DNA of 63,886 nt, counting the filler, from Nanobdellota archaeon (GTDB lineage: Archaea > Nanobdellota > Nanobdellia > Woesearchaeales > CAZZGN01): assembly GCA_051819665.1 (NCBI GenBank). It is 4 parts of 4 records of this genome, joined end to end, with 100 filler letters (N's around TTAATTAATTAA, not from the genome) between each part and the next. Parts side by side here need not be neighbours in the genome. Positions count along the whole stretch, not along the records: positions 1 to 19,163 come from JBNJDG010000017.1; 3 more parts are not named here. One strand, given 5' to 3'. The notes beneath the pieces are model-generated. The model saw only the letters and a list, made by a program, of their open reading frames with translations. It searched no databases and had not been told where the DNA came from. A program made the translations under genes and the position numbers. Of the stretch, positions 1 to 26,800 are shown in pieces (position 1 is the first letter of the stretch; every line of letters starts with the position of its first letter).

Positions 1-1
1 A

Positions 2-4260: not shown

Positions 4261-4282
4261 GACTATGGGAAGCAGCTACGCA

Positions 4283-4290
4283 TTTATAAA
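4283..4290 (-). promoter_or_regulatory. TATA box upstream of the rps2 leader
   Basis: TTTATAAA about 25 nt upstream of where the structured region begins. Confidence 0.5.
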
Positions 4291-4314
4291 TCTATTTCTT
4301 TTCAATATGGAAAA

Positions 4315-5430: not shown

Positions 5431-5450
5431 TGAACCATCATCCCTTCCAC

Positions 5451-5978: not shown

Positions 5979-5988
5979 GATTTCTGGA

Positions 5989-6480: not shown

Positions 6481-6797
6481 TCTTTGGGTTCTTCAGAATC
6501 TTCCTCGCCGAAATCCTCTGAATCTTCAGGAGCCTCTTCAGGTTCTTCGTTACTCTCCTCCTGTTCATCCTGCGATTCTGATGATTCGGACTCGCCTACT
6601 TTTTCTCCGAAGCCGACTTTCTTCAGAACTTTTGTAACCTTAATCTTCACTTCGTCGCCTTCATTGGTGTCAGGCACGAAGATAACAAAGCCGTCTTTCT
6701 TGGCTATACCATCGCCTTTTTCGCCAACCGCTTCTATCTTGACATCAAGCTGTTCTCCCTCTTTTACGGGAGCAAATCCTTCATTATTTCCGTACAT
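6477..6797 (-). CDS. Single TRAM-domain RNA-binding protein with acidic tail
   Basis: APVKEGE...IEAVGEKGDGIAK.DGFVIFVP....GD.V.IKV. Confidence 0.92.
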   Translation of the reverse strand: MYGNNEGFAPVKEGEQLDVKIEAVGEKGDGIAKKDGFVIFVPDTNEGDEVKIKVTKVLKKVGFGEKVGESESSESQDEQEESNEEPEEAPEDSEDFGEEDSEEPKE

Positions 6798-6904
6798 AAT
6801 CTATCTCACCTTTTAACTTCACTTCCTAAGAAGTGCACTGCCTTTGGGCAGATAATAGCTGCGTATAAGAATTAATTTATAAAGTTTTCTGAAAAATAAA
6901 AAAA

Positions 6905-7912
6905 TCAAATGTCCTTAAGGCCATTTGTTTCGACATAGAAGTTGCATTCCCCTTCAGGCATGTTCGGACTGTCGACAAGCTTAGCCACTCTCGAACCTTT
7001 CTTGCCTTTCCTCAGATAGACCCTGAAGGTAGAAGCATGACCTACAATATGTCCACCTATCGCTGCTGTAGGGTCTCCGAAGAACTGATCCGGCTTCGCC
7101 ATAACCTGGTTGGTTATATACACACAGATGTTATGCGCATCCGCTATCTTGAGCAGATGATGCATATGCTTGTTTAACTTCTGTTGTCTTTCAGCCAGGG
7201 TCCCTCTGCCTATGAATTCCGCCCTGAAATGAGCAGTAAGAGAGTCAACCACAACAAGCTTGACATTAAGGTTCTGCTTTGTTATAAGCTCTTCAACCTT
7301 TTCTGCGAGGAGCATCTGATGATCTGAATTGAAAGCCCTGGCAACCTTGATGTGTTTAAGGGCCTCATTCGGATCTATTCCTGCCCCTTCAGCAAGCTCT
7401 TTTATCCTTTCCGGCCTGAAAGTGTTCTCTGTATCAATATAAACGACAGCCGGATCCTTCTCATCCGAGAGCATCTGAGCCCTTACTGCAAGCATATGGG
7501 CCAGTTGTGTCTTGCCTCCTCCGAATTCAGAGAACACCTCTGTCACGGCACCGGTCTCGAAACCGCCACCCATGAGCTTATCCATAGCTTCACTACCGGT
7601 CTTTATCTTCTCAACCTTCTCTCTCCTGTGGAGTATGTCCTCTCCTGATTCAAAACCCATCTCAAGGGCGGATCTTGCTGCATTTATGACTTTCCTCGCA
7701 ACAGCCTCGGACATGCCCGTGGCATCCAGGAGCTGTCCGGGAGTAGCCACTGCAACAGAAAGGACATCCCCGAATCCTGATTCCTTCATCTTGTCAGCGG
7801 TAGCAGCACCCACGCCGGGGAGATCATTAAGAGTGACCTTTACTTCCTCCTTCTTACCTTCTTCCATATTATCACCGGAAACATTTTCTGCATCAGCATC
7901 CATATTAATCAC
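6905..7912 (-). CDS. radA: DNA repair and recombination protein RadA
   Basis: N-terminal HhH DLPGVG, Walker A region [32 protein letters not shown]. Confidence 0.97.
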
Positions 7913-7916
7913 CTAT

Positions 7917-8156
7917 TTAAATCTTTACCTCCATATTGAGATATTCGTAAGCCTTGTTAAGCACAAGTGCTGCTTTCGGAAGGTCATTGACCCTCATGTT
8001 CGAAGTACTTTTCCACTCGCCGTTCTTGTCCTTGAAATTCCTCTCAAGGGAAACTGTCTCAAAAGAGAACTCTTTGCCGTCCTTTTCCGATTTATTCTTC
8101 CAGATAGTGGCAGAAACCGGACTCGCCACAAATTTTTTTTCAGGTGTGTTGTTCAT
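7917..8156 (-). CDS. Small hypothetical protein, possibly ssDNA-binding
   Basis: SD GGAGGT; SATIWKN...SLERNFKDKNGEWKSTS...NDLPKA; 4 nt upstream of radA. Confidence 0.7.
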   Translation of the reverse strand: MNNTPEKKFVASPVSATIWKNKSEKDGKEFSFETVSLERNFKDKNGEWKSTSNMRVNDLPKAALVLNKAYEYLNMEVKI

Positions 8157-8408
8157 TTTTCTTACCTCCTTGCTGATCCCTAAGGGTCACCCATGCGGGT
8201 TTCGCATCTTTTTTCACTCCGGAAAGGGGCAAAAGCCCCTAAAGCCGGAGGGAGGGTGTTGGGATTTTTTAGCCCAATCTAGTCATGAGGAAGAGTCATT
8301 TAAATATCTCATCCGGACATGTCCAGTGTCCAGTGAAAATATATTCGTTAACAGGCAAAATTTTATAAGGAACAAGTTAAAAAAAAGCTATATAAAAAAA
8401 GAGGTGTA

Positions 8409-9920
8409 GTGATTATGAACAGTGATTTCCCTAACCATATTTCTTATTTTAAACACGAAAATATTCCGGAAGAATACCTGAAAAATTCTCTGGGTATCAA
8501 TAAAAAAATCAAAGGTGTTGTAAAACCGAAAAACAAAGAAGAGATAAAAGATATCATTGGATATGCTAATGAAACGAATACTGGTATATGGCCGATAAGC
8601 AGAGGAAAGAACATAGGATACGGCGACATGCTTCCTCTGAAAGAGAACAATGTTATTCTGGATCTCAGTGAGATGAACTCAATCAAATCTTTTGATAATG
8701 AACTGGGAAGAATAAGGCTTGAGCCTGGGGTTTCTCAAGAAGAGCTATATGAATTTCTTACTTCGATAGAAAACAACAACTGGATAATGGATGCAACAGG
8801 AGCGGGAAAAGATTCCAGTATTATAGGCAATAGCCTTGAAGGAGGGTTCGGACACACACCCATGGGCAACAGAAGAAAAAACATCACTGGGATAGAGGCA
8901 ATAATGGGGAACGGAAAAGTCCTAAAACCCACAACATATCCCAATATAGGTCCTGATATTAACGGCATCTTTGTCCAGGGACCGTATGGAGTTGTTACAG
9001 AAGCGGAATTCCAGTTATATAATATGCCAGCAGACTTCAATTCATTCAGAATAACAACATCAAAAGAAGAAAATCTTGAAACACTTTTAGACAATATTAG
9101 GGACTTGAGACAAAAGGAGATAATGGACAGCCTAGTACATATAGCTGACCCGATGAGAATGCTGGTAACCACGAGCAAAATCCCGGAAGAATACAAGGAT
9201 AAAATCATGAACTATGAAGAAGCCTCAAGAGCAGTGAGCAGTGAATCTGAAAGAAAAGTTTACTGGACAGCTCTCGGTGGGATTTATGGGGATAAAGGAT
9301 TAATCAGAGCAAAAAAAAGGAGAATTAAAGAGAAATTCAAAGGGAGTAATGCAAATATAATGTTCTTCAATGATAAAAAAATAGAATTATATAAGAACCT
9401 GGGAAAATCCATGAATTTCACAAAACTAGGAAGCATAGCGGAGAAGGCCATGACAGGATACAAAAACCTTCACGGGCTGATGAAGGGGGTACCTTCAGAC
9501 ATTGCAGAAGATAACATCGGATGGAGAACCGAACCTTACAATACTGGAACACTCTGGATTTCCCCTACATTTGATTCAAAGGGAGAGAATGCAAGAAAGA
9601 TGTACGAAATAACAAAAGAGCATTCCAAAAGACACGGATTCGAGATTCCAGTAACCATAACACTCGTCGAACCTTTCAGATGCGTAGGGATACTCAATCT
9701 TAATTATGATAAACTAAAAGATAAAGAAAAGGCTTTTGAGACATACGAATCCCTCCTGAAAAAATTCTATGAGAATGATATTTTCACTTACAGGACAAGT
9801 ATTATAGGAATGGGAAAAAATATGCACGTACCAAATCCAGGCAATTGGAAGATATACAGGGACATAAACAATGCGCTTGATCCAAACAATATAATTGCTC
9901 CGGGGAGGTACCAGATATGA
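8409..9920 (+). CDS. FAD-binding oxidoreductase, VAO/PCMH (p-cresol methylhydroxylase flavoprotein-like) family
   Basis: WPISRGKNIGYG, LDLSEMN, EPGV, SIIGNSLEGGFGHTP, C-terminal ALDPNNIIAPGRY; SD GAGGTG. Confidence 0.9.
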   Translation: MIMNSDFPNHISYFKHENIPEEYLKNSLGINKKIKGVVKPKNKEEIKDIIGYANETNTGIWPISRGKNIGYGDMLPLKENNVILDLSEMNSIKSFDNELGRIRLEPGVSQEELYEFLTSIENNNWIMDATGAGKDSSIIGNSLEGGFGHTPMGNRRKNITGIEAIMGNGKVLKPTTYPNIGPDINGIFVQGPYGVVTEAEFQLYNMPADFNSFRITTSKEENLETLLDNIRDLRQKEIMDSLVHIADPMRMLVTTSKIPEEYKDKIMNYEEASRAVSSESERKVYWTALGGIYGDKGLIRAKKRRIKEKFKGSNANIMFFNDKKIELYKNLGKSMNFTKLGSIAEKAMTGYKNLHGLMKGVPSDIAEDNIGWRTEPYNTGTLWISPTFDSKGENARKMYEITKEHSKRHGFEIPVTITLVEPFRCVGILNLNYDKLKDKEKAFETYESLLKKFYENDIFTYRTSIIGMGKNMHVPNPGNWKIYRDINNALDPNNIIAPGRYQI

Positions 9921-10918
9921 GACCAATTCTAATTATATCAGACAATAATGAAAGGATAAAAGAACTTAAAAATATTTATAAATCAATGGGAGCAAAATAT
10001 ATCAACATAGTATCTAATCTTGAAGAAGCAGGAAAATTACTGAAAAGCAGTAATGATTCATATATAGGACATTTTACAAATGATGTGAAAACAAACAAAA
10101 TAAACTCCTTCTTGGAAAATCACAAAAACATAGGCATAATAAATGAAGAAAATAAAAAACACCCATCATGCATTGATTATGACGGAAAGGACCTAGAAAA
10201 TAGAATAAATAAAATTGAAGAGATCATTTCCCTTAAAGAAAGGCCTGAATCTAAGAATAACTACAAGAATAATCTCCTGTTCAGACCACTAGAAGGACAA
10301 GAAGAGCTCGAGAAATATTTTAAGATAAGATATGAAATTAACAAAAAGATAAACTATCTCCAAGACAAAAGCAAACAAAAAATAGAATTAGATGAATACG
10401 ATAAAAATTCTATTGCACTCGGCGGTTTTGTAGATGGAGATTTGGGTATAATTGTCAGAATAATAACAGATCAGATAAACGAAGAACAATACAATGAAAC
10501 AAGGAAAATTATCCAGGACAAGAACCTCATTAAGAAATATGAGTCTGAGATAAATGAACCTTTCCCTATGATAAGAGATACAAAGGGAAAGATTAATCAC
10601 CTGATCAATGAACATGGACCATCGAATATTGTCGAATACAGCAGAATAATGACCACCGACAAAAGATTCAGAGGACTTCACCTTTCTACTTCAATGATAG
10701 ACTATATATTCACCTACTCTCAAAACCTAAACAAAGAAATAGGATTAGCTATATGCTGGAAAGGACACACAAATCATAATATAGAAAAAAATAATTTCAG
10801 TGGTATGGTGAAAAACATTGGTAATTTTAAACCACCTTCAATTGAACAAGAATCAAACATAATATACAAAGAACTAACCACACATAAAAGAAGATTCAAT
10901 CATGAATACATCATCTGA
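9917..10918 (+). CDS. GNAT acyltransferase, N-acyl amino acid synthase (FeeM)/acyl-homoserine-lactone synthase-like, with degenerate receiver-like N-terminus
   Basis: YFKIRY, ELDEYD, IVRII, IVEYSR motifs in LuxI/FeeM order; ATGA-coupled to the flavoprotein. Confidence 0.65.
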   Translation: MRPILIISDNNERIKELKNIYKSMGAKYINIVSNLEEAGKLLKSSNDSYIGHFTNDVKTNKINSFLENHKNIGIINEENKKHPSCIDYDGKDLENRINKIEEIISLKERPESKNNYKNNLLFRPLEGQEELEKYFKIRYEINKKINYLQDKSKQKIELDEYDKNSIALGGFVDGDLGIIVRIITDQINEEQYNETRKIIQDKNLIKKYESEINEPFPMIRDTKGKINHLINEHGPSNIVEYSRIMTTDKRFRGLHLSTSMIDYIFTYSQNLNKEIGLAICWKGHTNHNIEKNNFSGMVKNIGNFKPPSIEQESNIIYKELTTHKRRFNHEYII

Positions 10919-11525
10919 GCATTTTTGTGGTCTTTTTGTCACCTAGTCTCTCCGGAGAAGGCATCTTTTTAGGAAGATCTTTTTCATCAAACTCATGTGT
11001 TTCCTTAACACGAAAGATACAAAACTTATCCCCCTTTGCCATACATTTTTTTTCTACACATGAAACATCTTTATTCAAAAGACAACTGACAGTCCCTGCA
11101 AAAAGACCCATAAAATGATAACAAACACCTTTATCCGATTTACCATACACCGACCTGTACTGTTCTGCAATTGAAGAATCCACTTCAAAAATAAAATCAC
11201 ATCTCTTAAAATCATGTTTCTTTATAAATATCCTGCCGTAACCAAGCATTTCACCTTGGCCAACAACATTCTCAAGAACTTTCTTATTTATTCCAAATTT
11301 ATTCTTGATGACCAAAGCAGCGCCATGTCCTTGATAAAAACCCATCCAATAGAAAGTATCAAGGCCCTGGATATTATTTTCAACCTCAAGGGCTCTGATA
11401 AAATAACAAAGAGAATAATTTGAGAATAAAGAACCAGGTATGCCCCAAATGTTTATTCTACCATCCTTGAATCTCAAAGCTTTCGAAAGCAAAACTCTCT
11501 TTGAGATAGCCCCTGTCCTTTTCAT
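10911..11525 (-). CDS. V4R domain protein
   Basis: LGYGR, VCYHFMGLFAG, VEKKCMAKGDKFCIF. Confidence 0.88.
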   Translation of the reverse strand: MKRTGAISKRVLLSKALRFKDGRINIWGIPGSLFSNYSLCYFIRALEVENNIQGLDTFYWMGFYQGHGAALVIKNKFGINKKVLENVVGQGEMLGYGRIFIKKHDFKRCDFIFEVDSSIAEQYRSVYGKSDKGVCYHFMGLFAGTVSCLLNKDVSCVEKKCMAKGDKFCIFRVKETHEFDEKDLPKKMPSPERLGDKKTTKMLR

Positions 11526-11531
11526 CCAAAA

Positions 11532-12284
11532 TCACTCCAGATCATGAACTACAAGTCCCTTTTTCGATATCTCAACCGGATGTATGTCCTCATCATTCTT
11601 CGTGTGCCTCATCTTACGCACAAGAAGAGACCTTGAAAATTCACCGCCCATCGATTCGAACATCATCTGTATTATCCCGTCACAAAGGAACTCCGAGACT
11701 GTATCCCTCGACATGTACTTGCTCTCCTCTGATATCTCTGAGATCAACAAAGAGGTCACATCAAGCTCCTGCAACTCACCTATAAGCATGTAGACATACC
11801 TCTTCAGTATGAAATCGCCGCCTATCGAAGGGGAATATATGGAATCCCTCGTTATGAGGTCCTTGAGGAAAAGATCGTTTATAGCTGCATATATTGGCGC
11901 ATTTATAGTCAATGTCGAGAGAGAATCGATAACAAGCCTCTTTATATAATTCTTCTTTATATAATCCACTATCATCGGGAAAGTAGTGTGGTCTATATCC
12001 TTGACCGGAACGCACATGAGATGGAACTTCTTTTTCTTCTCCAGTCCTTTCAGCTTAAGGCCGAGCTGTTCCCCCTGCGTTATTATATCATCCCTTGCCT
12101 GCTCAAAACTGACATAAAGCGTGTTCTCCCCTTCCTTTGCCCCTGTATAAGCATATTGGAGCGAGAATATCGATTTTGCTGTTCCAGGTGTTCCTGAAAG
12201 GAGTATATTAGCACCGGAAGGCAGCCCTCCGTCAACAAGCTTATCGAATCCTTCTATCCCGGTCTTCACTCTCTCGGATTTCAT
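11532..12284 (-). CDS. KaiC/RAD55-family ATPase (single domain)
   Basis: KTGIEGFDKLVDGGLP, Walker A variant GTPGTAKS, RLVIDSL, VRKMRHT. Confidence 0.92.
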   Translation of the reverse strand: MKSERVKTGIEGFDKLVDGGLPSGANILLSGTPGTAKSIFSLQYAYTGAKEGENTLYVSFEQARDDIITQGEQLGLKLKGLEKKKKFHLMCVPVKDIDHTTFPMIVDYIKKNYIKRLVIDSLSTLTINAPIYAAINDLFLKDLITRDSIYSPSIGGDFILKRYVYMLIGELQELDVTSLLISEISEESKYMSRDTVSEFLCDGIIQMMFESMGGEFSRSLLVRKMRHTKNDEDIHPVEISKKGLVVHDLE

Positions 12285-12985
12285 TTTTCCACCACAATTC
12301 CTTCGTCGGTTATGTCAAATGTATATATCCCGCCATTGACCCTCGCTTTCCTCATCTTCAATACCTCTATCGTCCTCAGGAAAGATTTTCCGAGAGACCT
12401 TGTCCTGAGCCTCATCATACCGTCACATATATATTCAGAGATACAATCCCTTGTATCAGAATCCTTCCCTGCAAGGGTAATATAGAAAGTAGTGGCCTTT
12501 GCTTTCTCAAGTATATGTATGAGGTTGTATATGAACTGCCTCGGTTCAGAAGCACCTATTATCTTGCTCCCTTCGAGTATCCCGAAATTCTCAGAACCGT
12601 CAGTGAAAACCGGACTCATCGAGAGAAGGGCGAGGTTGTCGATGACTATCCTCTTAGCTCCTATGACCTTGGCCTCATCTATTATTATATTAGCCAGATT
12701 CCTGTCAACCTGAGAAAGCTCAAGATCGAGGACACTCACCTTGTTATCCTTTATCTGCTTCTTTAGGTTCCAGCCGAACCTGTCTGCCTGCTCAACGAGA
12801 TTCTTCTGGGACTGGTCGAGAGAAACGAAAAGCCCCGGCTCACCTTTTTCTGCACCATAACATATATATTCCAACCCGAGAATCGTTTTACCTGTACCTG
12901 CCCCTCCGGAGACAAGCACATTCGAATACCTGGGAATACCATCCGAGAGAAGATTTTCAAATCCTTTGATACCAACGTCAACCAT
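12281..12985 (-). CDS. KaiC/RAD55-family ATPase (single domain)
   Basis: GGAGTGKT, GEPGLFVS, KRIVIDNL, VLKMR. Confidence 0.92.
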   Translation of the reverse strand: MVDVGIKGFENLLSDGIPRYSNVLVSGGAGTGKTILGLEYICYGAEKGEPGLFVSLDQSQKNLVEQADRFGWNLKKQIKDNKVSVLDLELSQVDRNLANIIIDEAKVIGAKRIVIDNLALLSMSPVFTDGSENFGILEGSKIIGASEPRQFIYNLIHILEKAKATTFYITLAGKDSDTRDCISEYICDGMMRLRTRSLGKSFLRTIEVLKMRKARVNGGIYTFDITDEGIVVEK

Positions 12986-13082
12986 CTAAACACCCCTTTT
13001 TCATCATCTTATCCGGAGGCATTTATATATTTTTCCCAGAAAATGAAATGAAAATTAAAGCCGGATCCGGCTCATACTAAGT

Positions 13083-14060
13083 CTATTGATTCAGCTCTTT
13101 CTCAGGATCAGGATCCCTGAAGACCAACTGGGAGATCATCTCTTCCCTATCGAACATCTTATTCTTCGTGACCCTGCCGACAATCTTCACAAACTCACCA
13201 AGAAGTTCCTGCTTGACCTCCTCAAAGCTTCCGGGAGCATCCTTATAAGCAAGGATATCATTATCCTCTTTCTTCAGGAGAGATTTAGCCTGGTTCCTGA
13301 AACATACTATCCTGATGTTCCCTGTTCCGTCATCAACCTGGACATTCATCACGAAAGAATATTTGGGATCCACAGAACCATGGGTGTTGCAACGATATTC
13401 CCCCTCAGTAGGCTTTGCCCTCCTGTTGCATTCGGGACAGACCTCGAAGAACCTCGGCTCGAAAGCCTGGACTATGGTCCCGAGGATCTCCACATTCTCA
13501 TCCCCCTCTTTAAGATCCTTTACCTTCTTCCTGTTGCTCGTATATTCCTTGACCTCACCAATAGTGACGCCTTCAGGATTGACGAAGAGCTTGGACCTAG
13601 CATTCATGTGAAGCTCTACACGGTTATTATTGACCCTGACATAGGCATCCCTCACTTTTATTATATCGTTCTCGTTGAACTGCTCAAGCTTATCGGTCAT
13701 ATCATGCCAGAAAGTGACCCTTATCCTGCCGGTCTCATCACCTATCATGACACTGCCGACTTTCCCTTCCTTGCCGTCAGAGGTCTGGAAATTGTTCACA
13801 TCATACTTCTTGATGACCTTACCGGCCGTCTCCGCATTCTTCATGGCCGAGACTATCTGGTCTATCTTCACCGGGCCATCAGCCTTGAAAAGCTTTATCC
13901 CGAGCTCATTGGCTATGATCTGGGCCGCTCCTTCCTTTGATATAAGGCCTGAGAGCTGCTTGGTCTTATCGTTGATCTTCTTCTCGATCTCTTCATCCGA
14001 CAGTGTACTGTTCTCCTTGATCCTTGAAATTATCTGGTCTAAAGGTAACTGCATTTTCAA
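13083..14060 (-). CDS. Replication protein A (OB folds plus Zn finger)
   Basis: GLISKEGAAQIIA, IGDETGRIRVTFW, CPEC...C..H, DDGTGNIRIV. Confidence 0.9.
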   Translation of the reverse strand: MKMQLPLDQIISRIKENSTLSDEEIEKKINDKTKQLSGLISKEGAAQIIANELGIKLFKADGPVKIDQIVSAMKNAETAGKVIKKYDVNNFQTSDGKEGKVGSVMIGDETGRIRVTFWHDMTDKLEQFNENDIIKVRDAYVRVNNNRVELHMNARSKLFVNPEGVTIGEVKEYTSNRKKVKDLKEGDENVEILGTIVQAFEPRFFEVCPECNRRAKPTEGEYRCNTHGSVDPKYSFVMNVQVDDGTGNIRIVCFRNQAKSLLKKEDNDILAYKDAPGSFEEVKQELLGEFVKIVGRVTKNKMFDREEMISQLVFRDPDPEKELNQ

Positions 14061-14126
14061 AAAACCCCCTTCAGGAGTGGCAGGAAATCAATAATATTTA
14101 AAGGTTCTTGTTAATTAAACAGGATA

Positions 14127-16547
14127 TCAATAATCCTCCCTGAAAGGACATTTGCTTAAGGATGCTCCGTCATCATCCTTACAACTGTAAGCATTGTTGG
14201 CAAAACTTATATCCTCTGAGGACAAGTAACAGAGAGGGTTCCTTGACCAATCATTCTTCTTCTCCCTGAAATTGCCGTTGAGATAATATTTGAAATCGAG
14301 ATGATCTCCCTCCGAATAACCTGTGTTCCCGCTCCGGGCGAATACCTCTCCTTCCGAGAGCTTGTCTCCTTCCTCCACATTAACATCGGAAAGATGGCTG
14401 TACCGGGAATAAGTGCCCAGAGACTCATGATGGATTATGACGTTTGTCCCGAAACCACGGCATTCCTTTTTCCCGCCGTTCTTCACATTATCATAATTCT
14501 CGCAGACATAATGTACCTTCCCTGGTGCGACCGAACCGACGGGTGTTCCTTCTGCAATCGAGAAATCGATACCATCGTGCCAGTCCTGCCCTCCATCCAG
14601 CTGCCTCCAGCCATAACAGGAGACGATCTTCTTTTTCTCTACCGGATGGACCAACTCTTTCTCATTCTGCTCACTCTCCATCCTATCTATATAATCAACA
14701 GTATTGGTTCTCTCTTCAGAATCATCAGCTCCCTCAGACTTATGGACATAATTAGGAACCTCATCTATAGCAGAAACCACGAAATAATGGGTGCCCTCAT
14801 CAAACATGCCTGAGAAAGATTCCTTACGCACAAAATTACAGTTTCCGGTGCAGGCATCCTTCTCTAATCCCCCGGGCATCGCTTCTATCTTACTGGAAGA
14901 ATGATAGACAAAATACCCCTCAAGATCCACAAGCTTCCTGCCGTTGATGTTCTTTTCCGGTTTCTCCCAATCGAAAGAGACCCTAGCGGGCTCGCTTAGC
15001 GTGACCTTATATACTCCTCCTGATGAACCCTTCTCATTGATCTTCACCCTCTCCGGCGCAAGATTATCCTGTGGCGTAACTGATTCCGGCTCGACTTCTT
15101 CTATCTCATTCCCGAAAACATCTTCCGCAGTCACCACAAAATCGTATTCCTGCCTATCCTCCAGACCGGCAATGACCTTGACAAAGTTCTCCTCGGTTAC
15201 ATCATCCCTGCTTATATTGATATCCGGCTCAATATTGTTTACACTGCTTATCTCCTCCTTACTGTAATATATGTTATACTTCAGTATATCCCTCTCCTCC
15301 CTCTTCGTGAAGTTGAGGACAACCGCCCCCTCATCCCCTTTCTTGTTCCTGACATCAAAATCAACCCTTCCGGGAGGATAAACATCATTGAAGTATATGC
15401 TGAATTTCACCGGTATCTTCAGGTCCCTCAACTCATCAGCATATATGCTATACTCATTCTTGCCCTTGACGCATACCTTGGCCGTCCTCGGGTAAACTCC
15501 GCAGCTCTCCCCTTCCTTGTTACTGAACTCGTACATGCTCGTCTCCTGGAACTCAGTAGGTGGCGATTTGTATATGCTCACGGGCTCCATCTCTTTATCA
15601 TGAGTGCCGGATATCAGTTTACTGGTTTCAAGCTCTCCCTCATCATACTCAAACACGAATTTCAGATTTTCAGGTGTCCTGACCGAAGAACCATCAGGCG
15701 AGAACCTCGCAGGATTGACGCTCAACTCCTCCTCAAGTTCTCCCATGCTGACATTCCCGTTCTCGAAAAGAGTCATCTCATATTCTCCATCCAGAGAAGA
15801 ATCCCCTATATCCATCGAGAACTCACAGGTACAATCAGTGCCTATGGACTCAAGACAGTCCTTATAATTCTCCACGAAATGATAGAAGACTTTCTCTTCA
15901 CCTATATTACAATCATCAGACCACTCATGCCCTGTCTCATAATCAAGATGGGAAAGCCTCTGAGCGACGCACTGCTGGTAATCCTTCCTGTCCATGCACT
16001 GCTCTCTCAACGAATCCGCCTTACTGAAAAGTTTATCATAAATTTCTAAGTCATAATCCGTATACATCTTGAAAGAAGGCCTTGGGAGATATTTCTCGTC
16101 ATCACCGATCTCAAGATTCTCGGTTGCCACAGCACTAACAACATCATTAACAGCGAACCTGTAATCCATATCCGTATAAGGCCCGAGCCTTTCATTCAGA
16201 TGATGATCCAGGCCTTTTTCTATATCCGGCTTGCAATCGGAAGTCTTATTGAACCAATAATTATAATTCCCGTCCTCACCACAAGGGCTTTTTTCAGGGA
16301 AACCACCTTCCTGACCGAGGTCATAAAGCGCCGAAGGCAGAAGGAAAGAACCCAGCTTCTCATAATACAACAATCTCATATTCCCTTCCTGATACTCCTC
16401 AAGCAAAGAGAGCTGTTTCAGCCCTATATAAGTATCCTCAGCTCCAAGATTTTCCTCGTTCTTATCCATCATATTCAAGATGAAGGAAACGGTCAAAACA
16501 AGGGCGAGCAGAAAGATCAATATGTTCATCTGGGCTTTTTTCGTCAT
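14127..16547 (-). CDS. Class III signal-peptide protein with FN3-like domains and C-terminal M23 metallopeptidase
   Basis: MTKKAQ plus hydrophobic stretch; YNIYY, YDFVVTAEDVFGNE, YFVVSAID (FN3-like); HDGIDF, YSHLS, GNTGYS.G.HLDF (M23). Confidence 0.85.
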   Translation of the reverse strand: MTKKAQMNILIFLLALVLTVSFILNMMDKNEENLGAEDTYIGLKQLSLLEEYQEGNMRLLYYEKLGSFLLPSALYDLGQEGGFPEKSPCGEDGNYNYWFNKTSDCKPDIEKGLDHHLNERLGPYTDMDYRFAVNDVVSAVATENLEIGDDEKYLPRPSFKMYTDYDLEIYDKLFSKADSLREQCMDRKDYQQCVAQRLSHLDYETGHEWSDDCNIGEEKVFYHFVENYKDCLESIGTDCTCEFSMDIGDSSLDGEYEMTLFENGNVSMGELEEELSVNPARFSPDGSSVRTPENLKFVFEYDEGELETSKLISGTHDKEMEPVSIYKSPPTEFQETSMYEFSNKEGESCGVYPRTAKVCVKGKNEYSIYADELRDLKIPVKFSIYFNDVYPPGRVDFDVRNKKGDEGAVVLNFTKREERDILKYNIYYSKEEISSVNNIEPDINISRDDVTEENFVKVIAGLEDRQEYDFVVTAEDVFGNEIEEVEPESVTPQDNLAPERVKINEKGSSGGVYKVTLSEPARVSFDWEKPEKNINGRKLVDLEGYFVYHSSSKIEAMPGGLEKDACTGNCNFVRKESFSGMFDEGTHYFVVSAIDEVPNYVHKSEGADDSEERTNTVDYIDRMESEQNEKELVHPVEKKKIVSCYGWRQLDGGQDWHDGIDFSIAEGTPVGSVAPGKVHYVCENYDNVKNGGKKECRGFGTNVIIHHESLGTYSRYSHLSDVNVEEGDKLSEGEVFARSGNTGYSEGDHLDFKYYLNGNFREKKNDWSRNPLCYLSSEDISFANNAYSCKDDDGASLSKCPFREDY

Positions 16548-17839
16548 TCTGTCTGGACACCCCCCATCGTATATTCCTTTACCCTGAGAGTGAGGTTCTT
16601 GCCTGGCTGTCGAAGAGGGAGCGAAAACTCCGCCAGGACCTTCTCAAGAGACACGTACTCACCAGTATCCGAATAATCCGTTTCCATTATGACACCTTGC
16701 TCATCCTCTATCTGTACCGAATATTCATATCTCTCAGTCTCATAATCCTTCATCATGGCCTCAAACTTCTCCTTTATGGGAGCCATATCCCCCTCATTAT
16801 AAGCATTTGTGATCTTATCCGCAAAGTCCCTCTGGGGGACCATCTCATCATTCTTCTTTACGCCCCTTATATTCTTTATCATCACTTTCCCTTTCGAGCT
16901 TACTGTAACAGGATAATCACAAGGCAGGGAACAATCCTCTATGAATCTCTCAAGCGGTCCGGCTATACTCACTTCCATTTTCGCAGTCAATTCACCAACA
17001 TGACTCCTCACCGGCTGAGCCCTGAATTTCACATCGATGCTTATGTCCTCTGGATAAGAAGGCTCGGGGAAAAGACCATCAAGAGGATTCCTGCTCAGGA
17101 AGAAAGGGAAATATTCAATTTTCCCGTCACCGAAAGAGAACCTATAACCAGGATGACCATAGTCCTTCTCAAGCCCTTTATACTCACCAAGAGGCTCTGC
17201 TTCCGAATCGTTCTTCACGTACCAGAACACATTATCAATCTTCATATCCTGACCCATAACCTCCGCCTTTACAGGAGACTTAGGTATAGGTCTCTTCTCT
17301 GTGTATATCGGTATATCGCCGAATGTTTTCTCAAGATCCTCTATAGCATAATCAGTGGCTATAAGCCTGCCGCCGCTAGAGACCCACTGGCGAAGATCTG
17401 AAGCATCGTAATCCGCACCCGGAGAAAGGAAAGCATTATCCTCCGTATTAGGGTGTCCAGGTACTGCTCCTGTTATATCCACACTATCATAACCTTCCAT
17501 GACAGCAATATCCGCAACAGGCTCAATATCAAATACCAAAGAATCATAATCCTCTTCCATGCCTATATTTATCTTCTCCTTACCGTCTATTATCGCATAT
17601 TCTTTTCCCGAGATATTGAGCTCGTCTGTTTCCATCGAAACCCCACTTTCAACAGGAGACCTCAAAAGTGTAGAGACCTCATACGTGAGCAGATTCTTTT
17701 GCCTCGCTTCCCGTAAGACAATATCATCAGGGCCCTCCTGAGACGAGATTATCGAATAGACAACCAACAAGAGGGCTATCAGTATCATCGCCGAGACGAT
17801 ATCAACTATCTGGTCCGAGTTAATACCTCTCTTGTTCAT
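16544..17839 (-). CDS. Class III signal-peptide (pilin-like) protein with possible GATase-like domain
   Basis: MNKRG plus hydrophobic helix; LRQWVSSGGRLIATD...FGDGKIEYF. Confidence 0.7.
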   Translation of the reverse strand: MNKRGINSDQIVDIVSAMILIALLLVVYSIISSQEGPDDIVLREARQKNLLTYEVSTLLRSPVESGVSMETDELNISGKEYAIIDGKEKINIGMEEDYDSLVFDIEPVADIAVMEGYDSVDITGAVPGHPNTEDNAFLSPGADYDASDLRQWVSSGGRLIATDYAIEDLEKTFGDIPIYTEKRPIPKSPVKAEVMGQDMKIDNVFWYVKNDSEAEPLGEYKGLEKDYGHPGYRFSFGDGKIEYFPFFLSRNPLDGLFPEPSYPEDISIDVKFRAQPVRSHVGELTAKMEVSIAGPLERFIEDCSLPCDYPVTVSSKGKVMIKNIRGVKKNDEMVPQRDFADKITNAYNEGDMAPIKEKFEAMMKDYETERYEYSVQIEDEQGVIMETDYSDTGEYVSLEKVLAEFSLPLRQPGKNLTLRVKEYTMGGVQTE

Positions 17840-18282
17840 ATTCTCTCCTCCACATAACCGAGAGTTAGGGTTGCATTATAAAGCCTTCCGTCGAAAACGA
17901 TCGCATTAAACTCCTTCTGGACATCCACCGGCACATGATCATCACTACGGACTATCTTCGACCCCTCTTCCCACCGGAGGTCAAGCAAAAACTCATACCT
18001 TGACGAATTCATGCACTTGTTAAGCCTCTCTCTGTTAAAGGAATCGAGGTCTATGACAGGATATGTCCTCATAACATCATCGTCATGATAAGCAAAACAG
18101 GTATTGAGTATCCGCGAAACAAGTATATGCTCCTCGAGCTCTTCATCATGCTCTGTTATGGAAGATGTTGTCGAGTCCCCTACCATTATGAATATGAACA
18201 ATATGGCAAGTGCAAGAGGTATCGAGAAGAGCACATAAAACTGGAAATTCGTCGCTTCCCACGCATCCCCTTTCTTGTTCAT
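17836..18282 (-). CDS. Pilin-like protein (class III signal peptide)
   Basis: MNKKGD plus hydrophobic helix; ATGA overlaps on both sides. Confidence 0.7.
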   Translation of the reverse strand: MNKKGDAWEATNFQFYVLFSIPLALAILFIFIMVGDSTTSSITEHDEELEEHILVSRILNTCFAYHDDDVMRTYPVIDLDSFNRERLNKCMNSSRYEFLLDLRWEEGSKIVRSDDHVPVDVQKEFNAIVFDGRLYNATLTLGYVEERI

Positions 18283-18980
18283 CTGAACGCCTCCGAAAAA
18301 TTTCTGATAGACATCTTACCTTCTATCCTTATCATGTTCTCCGTAAGGGAATCATCCGGGAGAGGTATGAAGCCTGAAGACTCGGCAAGCCTGCAGGCAA
18401 GATCAGAGGAATCATCTCCGAATCTTATCTCTTCCTCACCCTCTGCAAATATTATGACCTCACCATATTCATGCTTTGAAGGCAGATCCTTGGAGACATC
18501 GATTTTGCCGAATTCAAGCACATTTAATTCATGATAGTGGCCTTCATTTCCTTCATACACTATACCCAGTGAACTCCTGTTGAGCTCGAGAGGAGTACAT
18601 GAATAAGAAGGCAGTGAAGGATCATCATTCAAATAGATTATATCCGATCTCTTGAAATAATTTTCCTCTCCCGTAGAGCCGACTGAAACATTTATCCACC
18701 CTACAAATTCCCTGCTGTTAGACTCTACATTGAATTCCCCGTCCGAAGCATTGATATCATAATCAAGTTTATGAGAATAATTAACCCATGCCGGTCCCGG
18801 CGAAGCCATTAAAGTTTCGGCCATGTAAGCACCATCAATAGCGAAATACTGCCTTCTCGCAGCCTCAAAACCATTATTCTGGGCAAAATATAGGCCTATT
18901 ATCATGACTATGGTCAGGCCAAGGATTATCCCGAACAGCTTTATCAGTACCTTATGGCTTCCCCTTTTTCCCCTGAACAT
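18279..18980 (-). CDS. Pilin-like protein (class III signal peptide)
   Basis: MFRGKRGS plus hydrophobic helix. Confidence 0.7.
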   Translation of the reverse strand: MFRGKRGSHKVLIKLFGIILGLTIVMIIGLYFAQNNGFEAARRQYFAIDGAYMAETLMASPGPAWVNYSHKLDYDINASDGEFNVESNSREFVGWINVSVGSTGEENYFKRSDIIYLNDDPSLPSYSCTPLELNRSSLGIVYEGNEGHYHELNVLEFGKIDVSKDLPSKHEYGEVIIFAEGEEEIRFGDDSSDLACRLAESSGFIPLPDDSLTENMIRIEGKMSIRNFSEAFR

Positions 18981-19003
18981 AAGACAATCACATTATCAGG
19001 GAT

Positions 19004-19163
19004 TTATATGTCTGTCGATTGGGGTGAGCAATTCCTTGCGCTTTTCCTCATGCAGACATCGATTACATCACTATCATCATTCTCATCAAAAATGATCCTG
19101 TTAGAATATCCCAGTCTGATTATATCCCCTCTATCCCAGTCATATTGCGGCAACCAATCAGTA
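19004..19163 (-). CDS. 3' fragment of a hypothetical gene truncated by the gap
   Basis: Open frame ...TDWLPQYDWDRGDIIRLGYSNRIIFDE...STDI* running out of the N gap. Confidence 0.45.
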
Positions 19164-20083: not shown

Positions 20084-22414
20084 TCATTCCAGCTCTGGCC
20101 TGAATGCGTAGGGTGTCTGCATGGAATACTCCGCAAAATTCTTCATATTCTTAAGCTCATGATGTCTCTCCGGAGGATCAGCTCTGTATGCAAAGAACGT
20201 AACATTATCTGCATCCATAAGATTCTCATAATCTACATGCCAATAGCCAGAGGTCTTATTGACTATAGCCCCACCTAAAGGAGCTGAAGGCATATAAGTG
20301 TTTGTCATGGATGCGTTCTTGCCACTACCTTTACAATCTTCACAATAATACCCCACCTTATAGCAATCAGATTCCTTGAAACATTCCCTGTCCAATTCAG
20401 CATCATCCACCCTGTCTATAGCGCCACTCTTTCCACTACACTGTGGAGGTACTTCACATAAGGGGTCACCATCATCATCCTCTTTCGGATACTTTTTACA
20501 TCTTGTAAGATCCCCCTGTTCTTCTATGCAGATTCTATTCTTCTCCTCTGATATGTTCACCCCTTCATAAGTGATGTAAGTGATTGTAACCCTGTAATCT
20601 CCTTCCGTTAGCTCAAACATATCATAGATCTCTTTACCTTTATTATACAATGCCGGCACACTGCTCTCTCCCTGCCATTTATTATCCTTTACCCTCTCAG
20701 CCTGGACAATCACAGTCTCATTCTCGTTGGGAGATCTGAGTCCGGCATCCCTCGTGCCAAGAGGATCACCTGTTGTGGACATCTTCTCATAAGTGCTATG
20801 ATTAAATATCTTCAAAGAGACATTCTTATGTACAAGAGGTTTCAGCCTTACTTTTTTATTGCTGCCAAGATCTTCCACAGAGATGTATTGGTCAAGATAA
20901 CCATTCTTTCTGAACCTCAAGGTACCTCCCGAAGCCATAGGTAACCTTGTCTTCAACTTACCAGACCCATTTGTAGTCGAAAGCGAACATTCCTCACCCG
21001 CATAAAAATGAACCTTAACATCTTCCACTGATTCACCTGAATAATCATTTAATACTTCAAAATCGTATACTTCTTCACCAGGGAAATCACACAACAAAGA
21101 ACCAGATGAAGAAACATCACCTGTTATATCACTATCTGATTTAAAGAATCTATTGCCCCTGATATTCCCCTCAAGAGCAAATCGGAACACTTTTTGCCTC
21201 CCTTTATCATTTATCTTCCTAAGCTCAACCATTGTCGGGAAAGAAAAATCATAAAAAGCCATGTACTCTGACGGTATCAGATTAGCATACAATTGTTCTA
21301 TCTTACTTCCAGTGTCAATAGTCTGGGACGGACCGATTATTTGCCCTTGTTCCGGCGGACTGACATCAAAGAAAATATCCCACCAATCATAATAAAGGAA
21401 AGACACAAACACGTCTCTCTCCTCAGAGAAAGGTGCTACTGTAAACTCATTAGAGACACCCTGTTCAAACTTATAATCCATATCCTCAATTTTGGGCATT
21501 GCCACTGTTGAAGTATTTGCAAGCCTTAAAGCAGGCATATAGGACATAAGCAGTTTTTCGAATTTATCCTCCAGATTATATTTTGTCCACCTGGGCTTTT
21601 CTACACCAGTTATGACAGTATTAAAAGGAGGGAACTCTCCGTCCATCCTTGCATAATAGGACAGGACATTCTTCGCATGCCTGGAGACGAAACCATTCTC
21701 TTGCTCAAATTTGGTTACCTCATAAGCTTCCTTATAGAAATCATATAATAATGAGCTCATTGATACAGAGAACCGGGACTTCTCAGTATTCTTACCCTTG
21801 AACTTCATAGATATAGGATAATCCATCTCTGAAAGAACGCTGTCATTCCTTACCGTTATACTAACTTCCGGAGACTCTTCAGGCTCCTCTATCTCATAAC
21901 CCTTCTTCTCTAGCCCTGTGAAGGATTTAAGGCACGAGTCCATATTATCCTCTATATACCTCGCGAGCTCTGTCTCTACGGAATTTTCACCAGAGAGAAA
22001 ACAATCATTCTCCTGTTTGCACAATGGCTTCATCAATGAAGAGAAATCACAACTAGAACTGCATTGATTCTTGCTCTTCATATGGTACCAATAAGGCACC
22101 TTATATCCTGAACCAGGATACACTTCAACAGAATTGCCCTCTGTAGTATCAGGAGAGGACACCATATTACCCTGATATATATAACCACCATGATGCATAA
22201 GCTCATCTATGCCTTCTCTTGTAAGATCATGAAGGCACTGCTCCACATAATTCTGCACAGGACCTACATTCGAGGGAACCTCGTCCGGAGAACCTTCCTC
22301 CGGCTCTTTCACATCTTTCTCCGAATCCCCCTCCAGGAAAAAGAACAGACCTGCAACAAGGATTATCAGGACTCCAGCAACTATAAAAAAACTTATCTGA
22401 CCTCTTTTTTTCAT
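20084..22414 (-). CDS. Large class III signal-peptide (pilin-like) protein, Cys-rich C-terminus
   Basis: MKKRGQISFFIVAGVLII; VQNYVEQCL...HGGY. Confidence 0.8.
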   Translation of the reverse strand: MKKRGQISFFIVAGVLIILVAGLFFFLEGDSEKDVKEPEEGSPDEVPSNVGPVQNYVEQCLHDLTREGIDELMHHGGYIYQGNMVSSPDTTEGNSVEVYPGSGYKVPYWYHMKSKNQCSSSCDFSSLMKPLCKQENDCFLSGENSVETELARYIEDNMDSCLKSFTGLEKKGYEIEEPEESPEVSITVRNDSVLSEMDYPISMKFKGKNTEKSRFSVSMSSLLYDFYKEAYEVTKFEQENGFVSRHAKNVLSYYARMDGEFPPFNTVITGVEKPRWTKYNLEDKFEKLLMSYMPALRLANTSTVAMPKIEDMDYKFEQGVSNEFTVAPFSEERDVFVSFLYYDWWDIFFDVSPPEQGQIIGPSQTIDTGSKIEQLYANLIPSEYMAFYDFSFPTMVELRKINDKGRQKVFRFALEGNIRGNRFFKSDSDITGDVSSSGSLLCDFPGEEVYDFEVLNDYSGESVEDVKVHFYAGEECSLSTTNGSGKLKTRLPMASGGTLRFRKNGYLDQYISVEDLGSNKKVRLKPLVHKNVSLKIFNHSTYEKMSTTGDPLGTRDAGLRSPNENETVIVQAERVKDNKWQGESSVPALYNKGKEIYDMFELTEGDYRVTITYITYEGVNISEEKNRICIEEQGDLTRCKKYPKEDDDGDPLCEVPPQCSGKSGAIDRVDDAELDRECFKESDCYKVGYYCEDCKGSGKNASMTNTYMPSAPLGGAIVNKTSGYWHVDYENLMDADNVTFFAYRADPPERHHELKNMKNFAEYSMQTPYAFRPELE

Positions 22415-22425
22415 ATATATCACAC

Positions 22426-23808
22426 TCAAACCGGAGGATCGTCTTCTCCGCCGCCTGATTCACCATCCCCCTCCGTACCACTGTTCACAGGTGTACCAGC
22501 AGTATCATCATCTTTATCCCCCTCTTTATTGGCTGAATAAGTTCCACCCATCTGACTAACTGATACAGGATAAGGGATCACACATCCCTGGTCCATATAT
22601 GAATCCTCCGGATCATATTGGAAATGCCGTGAATTAAAATAAATATTCTTATCCAGATCATCTTCTGTATCCTCTGTTGTAGAGCCATACTCAGGACATT
22701 TCTCATTCTGGCCAGGAGGGTACCGAGCATTACCATCCAATTCAAAACCATTACCGAACCTTATGTATATACCTGTGTATTTCTTTTTATTATAAAATGA
22801 GACTGTATTAGCATCATTATCTCCGGGAGAGACATTCCTTATCTTATCACTTACAAACCAGTCATCCTCACCACCTTGGGTTGTAAGCACTATATTATAC
22901 TGAAGGGACCCATCATCGAGAAGACCCTTATCATCGAGTTGAGAGTTTGAGAGAGATTCTATCTCCCCCGACGTATATGGATGGTGTACATTCCAGGAAA
23001 ACTTATAAAGATAGCCTTTTGGTTTTCCATCAGCATCCGGAAACCATTTATGATCATTGTCCCAATCCATTAAAGCTTTCCCGTTCTCATCAGCATATTC
23101 TTTTCTTCTCCCGTATGCATACATCATTGTGCTTCCGTCAGGGCTGGGCCATCCTCCTGGACCTCCTGTAAACCGAGAAGAATAATAATCCTTATAATTA
23201 TTCCTCAGCTTCTCTGTCTGCTCATAGCAAAAAGCCTTCTCTACTACCTTGGCACTTGGGCTTGTAACCCATTCAGTCAACTTCCTTCCGAACTCACTTC
23301 CACCAACCCAATTATTGAAAGCCGCATTAATCCCCGTAGCTTTATCTATAAAATCACCTATTGCCTTTTCAGAAGCACTAGGAAATATAGAAGTCCAAAA
23401 AGATGTATCCCTGTCATAATACTGATTCGCAAGCTCCTTCTCTTCTTGACTCATCTCCTTACTATCCACATCTACCTTTTCATCGAATTGTTTTTTAAAC
23501 TTTCTCAATTCTTTTTCCTGCTTCTTTTGTACATTTTTTTCATTAGGATTTAGATTTATATCATCCAGAGTGGCATATTGCTCTACACCAACTCCATCGT
23601 CCTCTGTCTCATCTTCACCATCCGTCTCTTCCTCATTTCCATGAAAACATTTCTTTGATGGGTCATCACATCCACCATCATCGTTATTCTCTTTATCTAA
23701 CTCAGGGTCTGTTGAATCACCATATTCCTGCCCCGCCACAAGCACCGACAGGGAGAGCATAAGCATGATTACCAATGACAGTCCAACAATTATCTTACCC
23801 GCTCTCAT
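22426..23808 (-). CDS. Secreted acidic hypothetical protein
   Basis: N-terminal signal peptide; D/E-rich termini; overlaps the upstream gene by 4 nt. Confidence 0.75.
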   Translation of the reverse strand: MRAGKIIVGLSLVIMLMLSLSVLVAGQEYGDSTDPELDKENNDDGGCDDPSKKCFHGNEEETDGEDETEDDGVGVEQYATLDDINLNPNEKNVQKKQEKELRKFKKQFDEKVDVDSKEMSQEEKELANQYYDRDTSFWTSIFPSASEKAIGDFIDKATGINAAFNNWVGGSEFGRKLTEWVTSPSAKVVEKAFCYEQTEKLRNNYKDYYSSRFTGGPGGWPSPDGSTMMYAYGRRKEYADENGKALMDWDNDHKWFPDADGKPKGYLYKFSWNVHHPYTSGEIESLSNSQLDDKGLLDDGSLQYNIVLTTQGGEDDWFVSDKIRNVSPGDNDANTVSFYNKKKYTGIYIRFGNGFELDGNARYPPGQNEKCPEYGSTTEDTEDDLDKNIYFNSRHFQYDPEDSYMDQGCVIPYPVSVSQMGGTYSANKEGDKDDDTAGTPVNSGTEGDGESGGGEDDPPV

Positions 23809-26800
23809 ACCTGACCACCTTCCATTCCTTCATTATCATCATCGCCACCCTCGACCTTGGTCTCATTATAAGCATCCTTCAACTGTTCACAGTAATCAGG
23901 CTCACCACTACTTCCTAGATTAGAGATGATATTTATCCCACCCATGACAGTAGAATAAAGCTGCATTGAAGCCTCAAGCAGATTAAAAGCAGAAGATATT
24001 CCACAAGCCACTGCATTACCATTTGAATCACATGCATAATTTATTCCCTTTTTTGTCCCAACATATATAAGCGCACTGGGATTATTAAGATATTCACCCA
24101 CTGACCTCTCAATAAATTCACCCAATCCTGTCGCCCCCAAAAGCGCATGTAATATCCCCGCTAACTCTCCTTCCATGCATCTCCTATAAGAATAAAGATC
24201 ATCACATACCGATTTAGGAAAATTCGTATTCGCGGCTTCGTAATAACACAAGGACTTCCAGCATTTAAGCTGCATATGCCTTGTAGATTTATATACAAAT
24301 CCTGGCAGACATATTCCCACTATAGATAAAATATAACTCTTTTTTGCCATCTCAAGTTCAGTATAAGGGAAACTACCAACTTCACCTTCAATACTTTGAA
24401 CAGTCTCACGACCTAAAAGGCTTTCTGCACCCATACCTTTCCAAATCGCTTCCCCTGTTTCTCTGATAACTGGCAAAAGTCCACCAGGAAACTGGACCGA
24501 TACATCTTCAGGCATAAATTCGCCCATACTGTCAAAAATGTCACCCTCACTATCTGATTCTCCACTACCTTCCTGAGAATCCCCACTGCTCTCAGAACTA
24601 TCCATATCAATTGAGCCTTGACCTTCCCCGAGTTCTTTACCTTCTTCCTGCACATCATACTCGTTCTCAACATCCTCGGAAGCCCCTTCAAAATCAATCT
24701 CGTCGGTTCCCTCACCCTCTTCCTCAGGAGCAGCTGTACACTGCACCAAAGCACATACCCAGCTTGCAATTTTACTGTTAAAGATAGAATCAAGCCAGGA
24801 GATCACTTGTTTAACATAGGCCAGTGCTGTAGCAGCTGGTTGCAAAATACCAGTAGAAGAAAGAGCAGTAATTACAGCCCCAAGAGCACCATTGATTCCG
24901 GAGATTATCGAAGTGATTGTACAAATATCCGAAAGGATATCAATGAAACCCTTTAAATCCCTATACCACCAGCTCCATTCATTATATTGGTCTATCACAT
25001 CCTCTATCTCACTTCCTAACTCAGCACCTGGGCTATCAATGGTTGAAGCTATCTCTACATCTAAAGAAACATTCTCCACCTCAGGAGTGTTATAGACCAT
25101 GTCTCCTTTTGTAGGCGTTATGGCTAGATAACATTCCTTATCTCCTCCGGGAATCCTGAAACTATCCCCCCCTCCATCATATGCATCCCTTATAAGCGAG
25201 GGATCAACCGGAAACTGGATGAAACCGCTGTAATCCTCGCCCTCTTCACTTGTATCCCCCATGAAAACAGAGCCAGCAGTACAATCTCCTGCCAATCTAT
25301 AATCCAGGACCTGTCCATCGCACCCTTTCTCTTTAAGATTAAAAGGAGCCATTTGCAGATAGAAACCACTCATGTACTTAACCGCTGAATACTCCACCGG
25401 CAATATATCATGGAATTCGATATCATAACAATCAGGAGCATCATCCGTCGGGTTGTATATCTCCACCTCTGTCTCATTTTCAAGAACATTCCCAGCAGGA
25501 TCATGGAACTCGAAATCAATGACAGGCTTTGAATGTCCGTTCCTTATCGGATCAGTCTCCCATGTGCATTTATAGTCTCCTTCCTGTTCACTGCAGCTTC
25601 CTTCAACCTCGCCATAACCAGAAGAGCTCTCGCCGATGAGCTCGGTCATATTGGCCACTGCCTTATCAACACCAACATTATCAGACACAGTAGCCTCTAT
25701 CTTCAGAACATCATTGGATTTATGGAAATCCAGAAGGCCATTCTCGGTAACGGATTTGATGGACAGGTTCTTTATCTCGGGTTTCTCACCATCATAATAG
25801 ACCCTTGCCTGATCCTTGCCTTTGAAACCAGTATTACCTGCTATATCCTTAGACTGAGCATTTACATAGAGATAATAATCCTGTGCCGAATTACCTTCTC
25901 CCAGATCAACATCCCAGTAGCATGTCCATCCTTCTTCACAGCGATCTGCAGGTACATTCTCACTGCTCTTACCACGCAATGAGCTCATATCAAGAAATAC
26001 ATCATCCGGAGAAAGACCTGAGCCGGCTTCCTCAATATTCATGATGAAAGTATTCTCTCCTTCCTTGAAATAACTGTCACCATCGAAGGTATTCTCCTTA
26101 CCGATGAAATTAACTTTAAGAGCAGTTTCATCCTTAGTGAAGCTTCCGCCGAATTGAGCTTCAGCTATATTACCTTTCTTATCCGTAGCAGTGACATTGA
26201 TATCCGCCGGGGAAGAAGCAGCCGTTACACCAGTAATAGTACAATTATAACCCTCATGAAGAGGTGTACAATCACTAACAGGCACAGGTATCTCATCATT
26301 ATTCTCGTCAGCAAGGAGCGTAACCTTCTCAAGATTAGCATCATCCACGATCACGCTCAGTTCACCAGTCAGACCCGATGAAGGAATATGGGTCACTTCC
26401 TGACCTTCTTTCCTGAACTCAAACCCCTTTATATCGGGCTTAGTGAAATCTGTTGTGAAAGTCTGCGTAACATAATCAGCATGCTTCGCATTATCAGACA
26501 GACCTTCCCAGAAATTATCCCTTACCTTTATATTGAAATCATGCTCTCCATCTTTTGAATAATCAAGTACCTTAGCGTCATTCGCCGGATCTTTCGTGCC
26601 GGGCTCCTGGGAGATATCAATACTGCCCACAGCATCCTCTCCATCGAATACTCTTATCTCCTTTATACCAACAGAGGAATCACACTCTGAGATATCCTCT
26701 GCATTATAATCGAATTCCAGCCCCCCTTCCGCCTGACTTATCTCTACAGAATGTATCTGCGGACTCTGGCTGTCAATACAAACTTTCTTCTGATGTGAAT

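Follow-up and report, generated by a model that had tools for sequence, protein, structure and literature searches.

The window analyzed here is a 63,886-nt stretch of DNA joined from four contigs of a Woesearchaeales archaeon (Nanobdellota; GCA_051819665.1), whose 1.12-Mb metagenome-assembled genome (MAG) is 96% complete. The names of homologues and the Atlas clusters point to Woesearchaeota/Nanobdellota. On contig C17 (window 1-19163), the gene at 14127..16547 encodes an 806-aa modular protein in which a class III-like leader and a pilin-like domain are combined with a peptidase domain of the M23 family. Its parts, assigned from the sequence, Pfam and a structure model, are as follows:

14127..16547, minus strand: modular pilin-like protein, 806 aa (leader, pilin-like domain, Cys-rich scaffold, two FN3-like repeats, M23 peptidase)
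16449..16547, minus strand: class III-like leader KKA/QMNIL and hydrophobic helix (residues 1-33), Glu absent at +5
16056..16448, minus strand: pilin-like globular domain, residues 34-164
15378..16055, minus strand: Cys-rich helical and beta scaffold extension, residues 165-390
14712..15392, minus strand: two FN3-like repeats, about residues 386-612
14130..14657, minus strand: M23 endopeptidase domain (H657, D661, H718, H749, and D751 replacing the third zinc His)

Domain architecture of the 806-aa protein

The N-terminus reads MTKKA/QMNIL and continues into a hydrophobic helix. The short basic leader, with Ala at -1 (KKA/QM), has the features of a class III substrate and fits the FlaFind-type pattern, in agreement with the original prediction. 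In the structure model (pLDDT 93.8, pTM 0.87), the pilin-like domain contains a second helix at residues 43-79 and predicted strands at 129-134, 136-141 and 158-162. In a structure search, GspK ranked first and eight pilins were among the top 16, with the matches lying over residues 40-165. The aligned range of GspK was 29-302 for 82 residues, fitting a domain inserted in the pilin beta-sheet, and GspK does carry such an extra domain. Foldseek against PDB and viral models, with a re-check of its list, gave no significant match. Two modules can be told apart within residues 1-240, A (1-125) and B (150-240), and the internal cargo slot between them (about residues 142-152) is vacant in this protein.

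The predicted Cys-containing region is present, as 10 of the 18 Cys residues lie within residues 31-390. No known fold was matched by the extension at 165-390, which was never searched as a separate piece. The two FN3-like segments fall short of the Pfam fn3 cut-off: neither the whole protein nor the second segment alone matched fn3, and the first segment alone reached E 0.0022 and 18.6 bits vs the cut-off of 25. The 'FN3-like' label is nevertheless fair, because the segments align with one another (internal repeat, E 4e-5) and six homologues pass the fn3 cut-off. The pair is probably a stalk.

The C-terminal M23 domain matched Pfam Peptidase_M23 (PF01551) at residues 657-759 (E 8.6e-19, 68 bits vs a cut-off of 28.7), and 29 PDB sequences, lysostaphin, zoocin A and LytM among them, match the same stretch. 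It is the sole M23 domain in the genome. The two motifs named in the original prediction were located at H657-D661 (HDGID) and H749-L-D751 (HLD). H657 and D661 align with the lysostaphin zinc ligands of HxxxD, and both catalytic His positions that are not ligands are kept, H718 (equivalent to lysostaphin H329) and H749 (the first His of HxH), whereas the third zinc-ligand His of the canonical M23B HxH motif is replaced by Asp751. The GC content at third codon positions (GC3) of the M23 part is 0.54 vs 0.53, and no GC shift marking this part as a recent import was seen. Contig pieces of the gene, leaving it partly uncovered, are present in three metatranscriptome runs of one salt-lake study; as contigs cannot show transcription, these pieces are no evidence of it. 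Scanning for sigma-70 promoters is uninformative in an archaeon.

In M23 enzymes, HxH contributes its second His to zinc binding, while its first His and another about 30 residues earlier activate water (passages of PMC9662197). Asp occupies the third-ligand position in 12 of 37 aligned M23 domains from related loci; both catalytic His residues are kept in all 12, and HxxxD is visible in 11, the remaining one being a fragment. A pattern scan of species genomes found the HxD motif in at least 120 genome stretches. Among 80 of these that were examined, 74 are bacterial records (Bacteroidales, spirochaetes, Halanaerobiales, Bacillota and others) and 78 retain the first motif as H-x-[GA]-x-D. Judged from these alignments, the HLD variant resembles a conserved His-Asp-Asp site more than a decayed one. 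The archaeal HLD domains required 3 changes on the tree vs 9.4 after shuffling, and a single origin was neither established nor rejected (approximately unbiased test, p-AU 0.24; four partial or duplicate rows removed); a bacterial donor could not be resolved among the HxD stretches examined. Our literature search found no experimental study of an HxD M23 enzyme, and the subtype, widespread in bacteria, appears to be unstudied.

Conserved locus and exchanged cargo

The gene lies at the end of a run of pilin-like genes and is followed by an RPA gene:

13083..14060, minus strand: RPA (OB-fold) gene, conserved downstream landmark of the locus
16544..17839, minus strand: upstream gene 1, 431 aa, conserved pilin-like family of about 170 aa with an insert of about 265 aa matching no known family
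17836..18282, minus strand: upstream gene 2, 148 aa, conserved pilin-like family with a YPGIID motif
18279..18980, minus strand: upstream gene 3, 233 aa, conserved pilin-like family
19004..19163, minus strand: end of a further open frame, cut at the contig edge 19163

The gene had been described as the last of four ATGA-coupled pilin-like genes. All three ATGA overlaps are present, but only two of the four products have a strict FlaFind-type leader, and the operon is probably longer because a fifth frame is cut at the contig end. Profile comparison of the three pilin-like families matched their leaders alone. The insert of upstream gene 1 (window 16850-17647, minus strand) lies inside the pilin-like domain, has no Pfam match and is common to the homologues of G001, G019 and G146; thus a second subunit of the run also takes inserts. 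The RPA gene is probably outside the device.

Word-indexed protein searches returned almost no homologues, whereas profile searches succeeded. The module A profile matches 134 of the 151 genomes of the order, mostly in single copy (132/149 without the unpublished G112 and G121), and 100 of 121 genomes of a phylum sample. We surveyed the locus in 120 genomes holding 121 module-A open reading frames (ORFs), setting aside the source genome, G112, G121, four listed places and the weakest matches. Class III-like genes of about 330, 170 and 180 aa typically precede the module-A gene, which ends the run, and RPA comes next. RPA was matched in 75 of the 120 loci, many contigs ending early, and the family of upstream gene 1 in 102, in 100 of which it is the direct neighbor. 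A basic-Gly/Ala/Ser leader is present in 112/121 ORFs. Glu is not among the eight commonest +5 residues of homologue leaders and is also rare in the three neighboring families, while the ordinary pilins of the source genome have Q+1/E+5.

In 20 well-assembled genomes, the array usually reaches some 15-20 pilin-like genes, and no ATPase or platform gene was matched within 20 kb of it; secretion ATPases are encoded elsewhere in the genome in 25/25 genomes tested. This is consistent with the scattered ATPase and platform genes of type 4 filaments (T4F) reported for Nanobdellati generally in passages of PMC13705601. The source genome likewise encodes an A24 prepilin peptidase on contig C11, four secretion ATPases on C1, C18, C31 and C38, and platform-like genes, the last identified by sequence reading only, all unlinked to 14127..16547.

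To call cargo, we required a peptidoglycan-active Pfam domain at E<=1e-5; one ORF was scanned only up to a gap. Such a domain lies inside the ORF in 59 of the 120 loci, or in 66 when the next gene is counted (37 downstream ORFs scanned, RPA-sized ones left out). Including double loads, the cargo comprises M23 (25 loci), SLT (21), NlpC/P60 (6), Amidase_2 (5), M15/VanY (4), 3D (4), GH73 (1) and YkuD (1). The remaining 54 loci include about nine with inserts homologous to such cargo and several weak matches, the rest being bare, truncated or unknown. Other domains are few: GDSL lipase (2), TPM (1), C39-like (1, L089), TSP3 (1) and one methyltransferase. The methyltransferase, on the homologue of the same family from G001, was rejected as a probable mis-assembly, the two halves being colinear with the 806-aa protein on two contigs. 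Among 149 database homologues of residues 1-390, drawn from 392 at E<=0.001, 59 carry a peptidoglycan-active domain, adding GH108 and M15_4. The closest of them (35-41% identity over the scaffold) have the same layout with M15_4 (P0006, 41%) or GH108 (P0008, P0009, P0012) instead of M23. Altogether, eight or more unrelated cargo families occur across the scaffold.

Swapping of effectors at the C-terminus had been suggested for homologous loci. Exchange was indeed found, but its main site is the internal slot between modules A and B (22/25 M23 cases), and the C-terminus, used by the 806-aa protein and 3/25 cases, is secondary. Cargo class is unclustered on the scaffold tree, itself weak (32 changes vs a shuffled mean of 30.5); even within a single family, one genome has Amidase_2 and another SLT. 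M23 exceeded the cut-off in 32 of 61 genomes, and in 17 of these 32 it is located in or just after the module-A gene. In G093, a split scaffold partner (L127:3-4835) carries GH3, phosphodiester glycosidase and metallophosphoesterase domains, possibly aimed at wall glycopolymers. The source genome has a second murein-active gene, encoding a stand-alone secreted SLT protein (C51:5110-6252, E 7e-20); no NlpC/P60 domain was found in this genome.

In the other orders of the class, module A matched 18 of the 27 genomes listed, where the gene order is the same, with RPA next in 16/18. In all 18 the scaffold is bare (159-292 aa, no Pfam match), and M23 (2/18) and SLT (8/18) are located away from it. 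The scaffold thus predates the enzymes loaded onto it and has a role that does not depend on them. In one sister-order genome with a bare scaffold, G163, an upstream array gene (L337:812-2875) carries SLT and M23, so the load can move to another subunit.

Proposed function and relation to known systems

We consider it rather likely that the 806-aa protein is a tip-capping modular minor pilin of an archaeal T4F, which delivers a murein hydrolase when it touches a bacterial wall. The leader would be cleaved by the prepilin peptidase of the genome, and the hydrophobic helix and pilin-like domain would join the three neighboring pilin-like proteins in a tip complex beneath which an unlinked secretion ATPase and platform assemble the filament. 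The fold, the gene order as the last of four minor pilin genes, the missing Glu5 and the internal insert in the family point to this subunit as the bulky cap, similar to GspK/PilK. Complex prediction of the protein with upstream genes 1 and 2 gave no answer (score 0.01 vs a mark of 0.32). The FN3 pair would project the M23 domain outward, where, by homology, a zinc site of His657, Asp661 and Asp751 with His718 and His749 may cleave bacterial murein in its peptide stems or cross-links. Different murein hydrolases are taken up by one and the same scaffold across the order, perhaps matching or chasing different bacterial walls, and the purpose would be to breach a bacterial host or prey locally, or to feed on it.

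A rather unlikely alternative is that the protein is processed as a class III substrate and works outside a filament, membrane-anchored or in a short pseudopilus or bindosome-like structure, where it would obtain peptides and amino sugars by digesting murein from debris or attached cells. Archaeal class III leaders are also found on non-pilin binding proteins, and the ATPase is unlinked, both of which suit such scavenging. A passage of PMC11537232 suggests that Pacearchaeota may draw amino acids from the peptidoglycan of dead cells, which also speaks for it. Against it stand the pilin-like globular domain after the leader and the fixed position in a pilin-like array of about 20 genes, and the frequent swaps of chemically unrelated hydrolases fit target-specific contact better than bulk scavenging. 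More improbable still is a tip that only grips walls, the M23 domain being a catalytically dead or weak murein-binding adhesin in which the change of the third-ligand His to Asp abolishes zinc chemistry. The ligand role of that His and the degenerate M23 folds that act as binding hubs (passages of PMC9662197) speak for it, as do the adhesins of known modular pilins (PMC10191384, in part) and the clearly degenerate cargo M23 domains of L025, L113 and L193. Against it stand the catalytic His residues kept in every HxD domain aligned and the recurrence of the motif with its first part intact. Moreover, Asp is a common zinc ligand.

The original prediction of a pilus-displayed wall-lytic or wall-binding effector is supported by the cargo survey and the pilin-like model. 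Of the two partners it had allowed, bacterial or pseudomurein-walled, the latter is weaker, since glycosidases and amidases specific for murein occupy the same slot. The known hosts of cultured DPANN are archaea, and one slot holds a C39-like peptidase (L089), a fold known from pseudomurein endopeptidase; an archaeal target, whether methanogen pseudomurein or a host S-layer or peptide, is nonetheless very improbable, as the SLT, GH73, GH108 and Amidase_2 domains in the same slots act on MurNAc bonds, which pseudomurein lacks.

A tentative extension of the tip-cap reading, somewhat doubtful to us, is that Woesearchaeales are order-wide contact predators or parasites of bacteria with an archaeal HIJK-like filament tip. 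The capping pilin would be a polymorphic murein-hydrolase cassette, derived from a bare ancestral subunit kept in sister orders by gain of two refillable slots; its cargo would predict host wall chemistry, and the His-Asp-Asp M23 would be one warhead. Published evidence that DPANN archaea live on bacteria consists of hydrolase genes scattered among genomes. The pilin-like gene described here is conserved and mostly single-copy, and nearly all that is exchanged in it are murein hydrolases; it offers a lineage-wide testable mechanism, with subunit and enzymes defined and cargo identity as a candidate host predictor. If true, it would add enzymatic attack to the adhesion known for modular pilins and suggest an HIJK-like tip in archaea. 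It would also be a source of new lytic enzymes, in this case from an organism of a salt lake.

Murein hydrolases of archaea, M23 in Nanoarchaeia included, are already published: passages of Strock et al., 2025 (PMC12352652) list M23 hydrolases in four Nanoarchaeia genomes and show killing by two haloarchaeal enzymes, and M23B is reported in a Micrarchaeota MAG (PMC8561730, in part). The 806-aa protein shares HxxxD and both catalytic His residues with the M23B peptidases lysostaphin, LytM and zoocin A and with archaeal Woldo, and the archaeal producer with Woldo (passages of PMC12352652), but has HxD for HxH. Its class III leader and pilin-like domain replace the Sec/Tat export of Woldo-type hydrolases, and M23 alone was found in it, whereas the modular hydrolases of Strock et al., 2025 combine catalytic and peptidoglycan-binding Pfam domains. 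Large SLT proteins of Woesearchaeota and Pacearchaeota, known as fam00969 (PMC8204110) and GH23 (PMC9723730), come from the same lineage, and those of Woesearchaeota are read in passages of these papers, PMC10936187 and PMC11537232 as signs of bacterial hosts, the same hosts or prey as proposed here. Many SLT cargo versions may already be among the proteins counted there, while in sister orders the 2,200-2,600-aa SLT proteins are encoded by genes separate from the scaffold.

As in GspK of the type II secretion system and PilK of type IVa pili, with the HIJK complex (PDB 3ci0) as reference, Glu5 is absent; GspK is the best structural match, and here the subunit is the last of four conserved pilin-like genes. 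Passages of PMC10191384 describe tip complexes of four minor pilins capped by a Glu5-less subunit and domains that can be grafted onto pilins. Streptococcus sanguinis PilB/PilC (7b7p is among our structure matches) share the grafting of a functional domain onto a pilin, but theirs are C-terminal adhesins, whereas the two slots described here hold murein hydrolases from at least eight families. With the archaeal T4F system 1 (Epd-like; PMC13705601, in part) the locus shares many class III proteins and scattered ATPase and platform genes. The bindosome is another comparison for many class III proteins.

The main text of PMC12352652 lacks the word 'pilin', those of PMC8204110 and PMC9723730 mention neither pili or pilins nor a shared scaffold, and that of PMC13705601 lacks 'peptidoglycan' and 'hydrolase'. 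We found no report of a pilin-hydrolase fusion in DPANN in the literature, the supplements of PMC12352652 (S2 Table), PMC8204110 and PMC13705601, which may list such proteins, lying outside this search. What is new is thus the combination of modular pilin and archaeal murein hydrolase, each known separately. The analysis adds a census across the order, the division of the cargo sites into two slots, a model resembling GspK, the bare form as ancestor and a survey of HxD domains.

Other features of the window and genome

A T4F locus with an ATPase, two platform genes, a pilin and large secreted proteins lies at window 20084-35508. Linkage of 14127..16547 to its ATPase and platform genes (window 27-31 kb) was rejected as an effect of contig concatenation; these genes sit on the separate contig C18, and C17, C18 and C19 follow one another in the window simply in order of size, so that this neighborhood is not evidence. 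In G017 and G102, homologues of the 781-aa class III protein of this locus occupy the extreme upstream end of the pilin-like array. More class III-like and very large secreted proteins are encoded on C27 (1-12401) and C23 (2589-5545) of the source genome, and these could represent the upstream portion that the array lacks here. Archaellin-like genes are present on C38 and C54.

At window 63281-63886, a methyl-accepting chemotaxis-like repeat sequence is seen as an antisense frame. An A/V-type ATPase proteolipid subunit c of 1100 aa with many tandem hairpin repeats, possibly an entire ring in one chain, is encoded at window 48114-51416 (minus strand). Finally, a low-GC insert at window 8409-11525 carries plus-strand ORFs for an FAD-linked oxidase and a GNAT/acyl-homoserine-lactone-synthase-like protein, which face a V4R-like gene and two KaiC-like ATPases, named by reading of their sequences.
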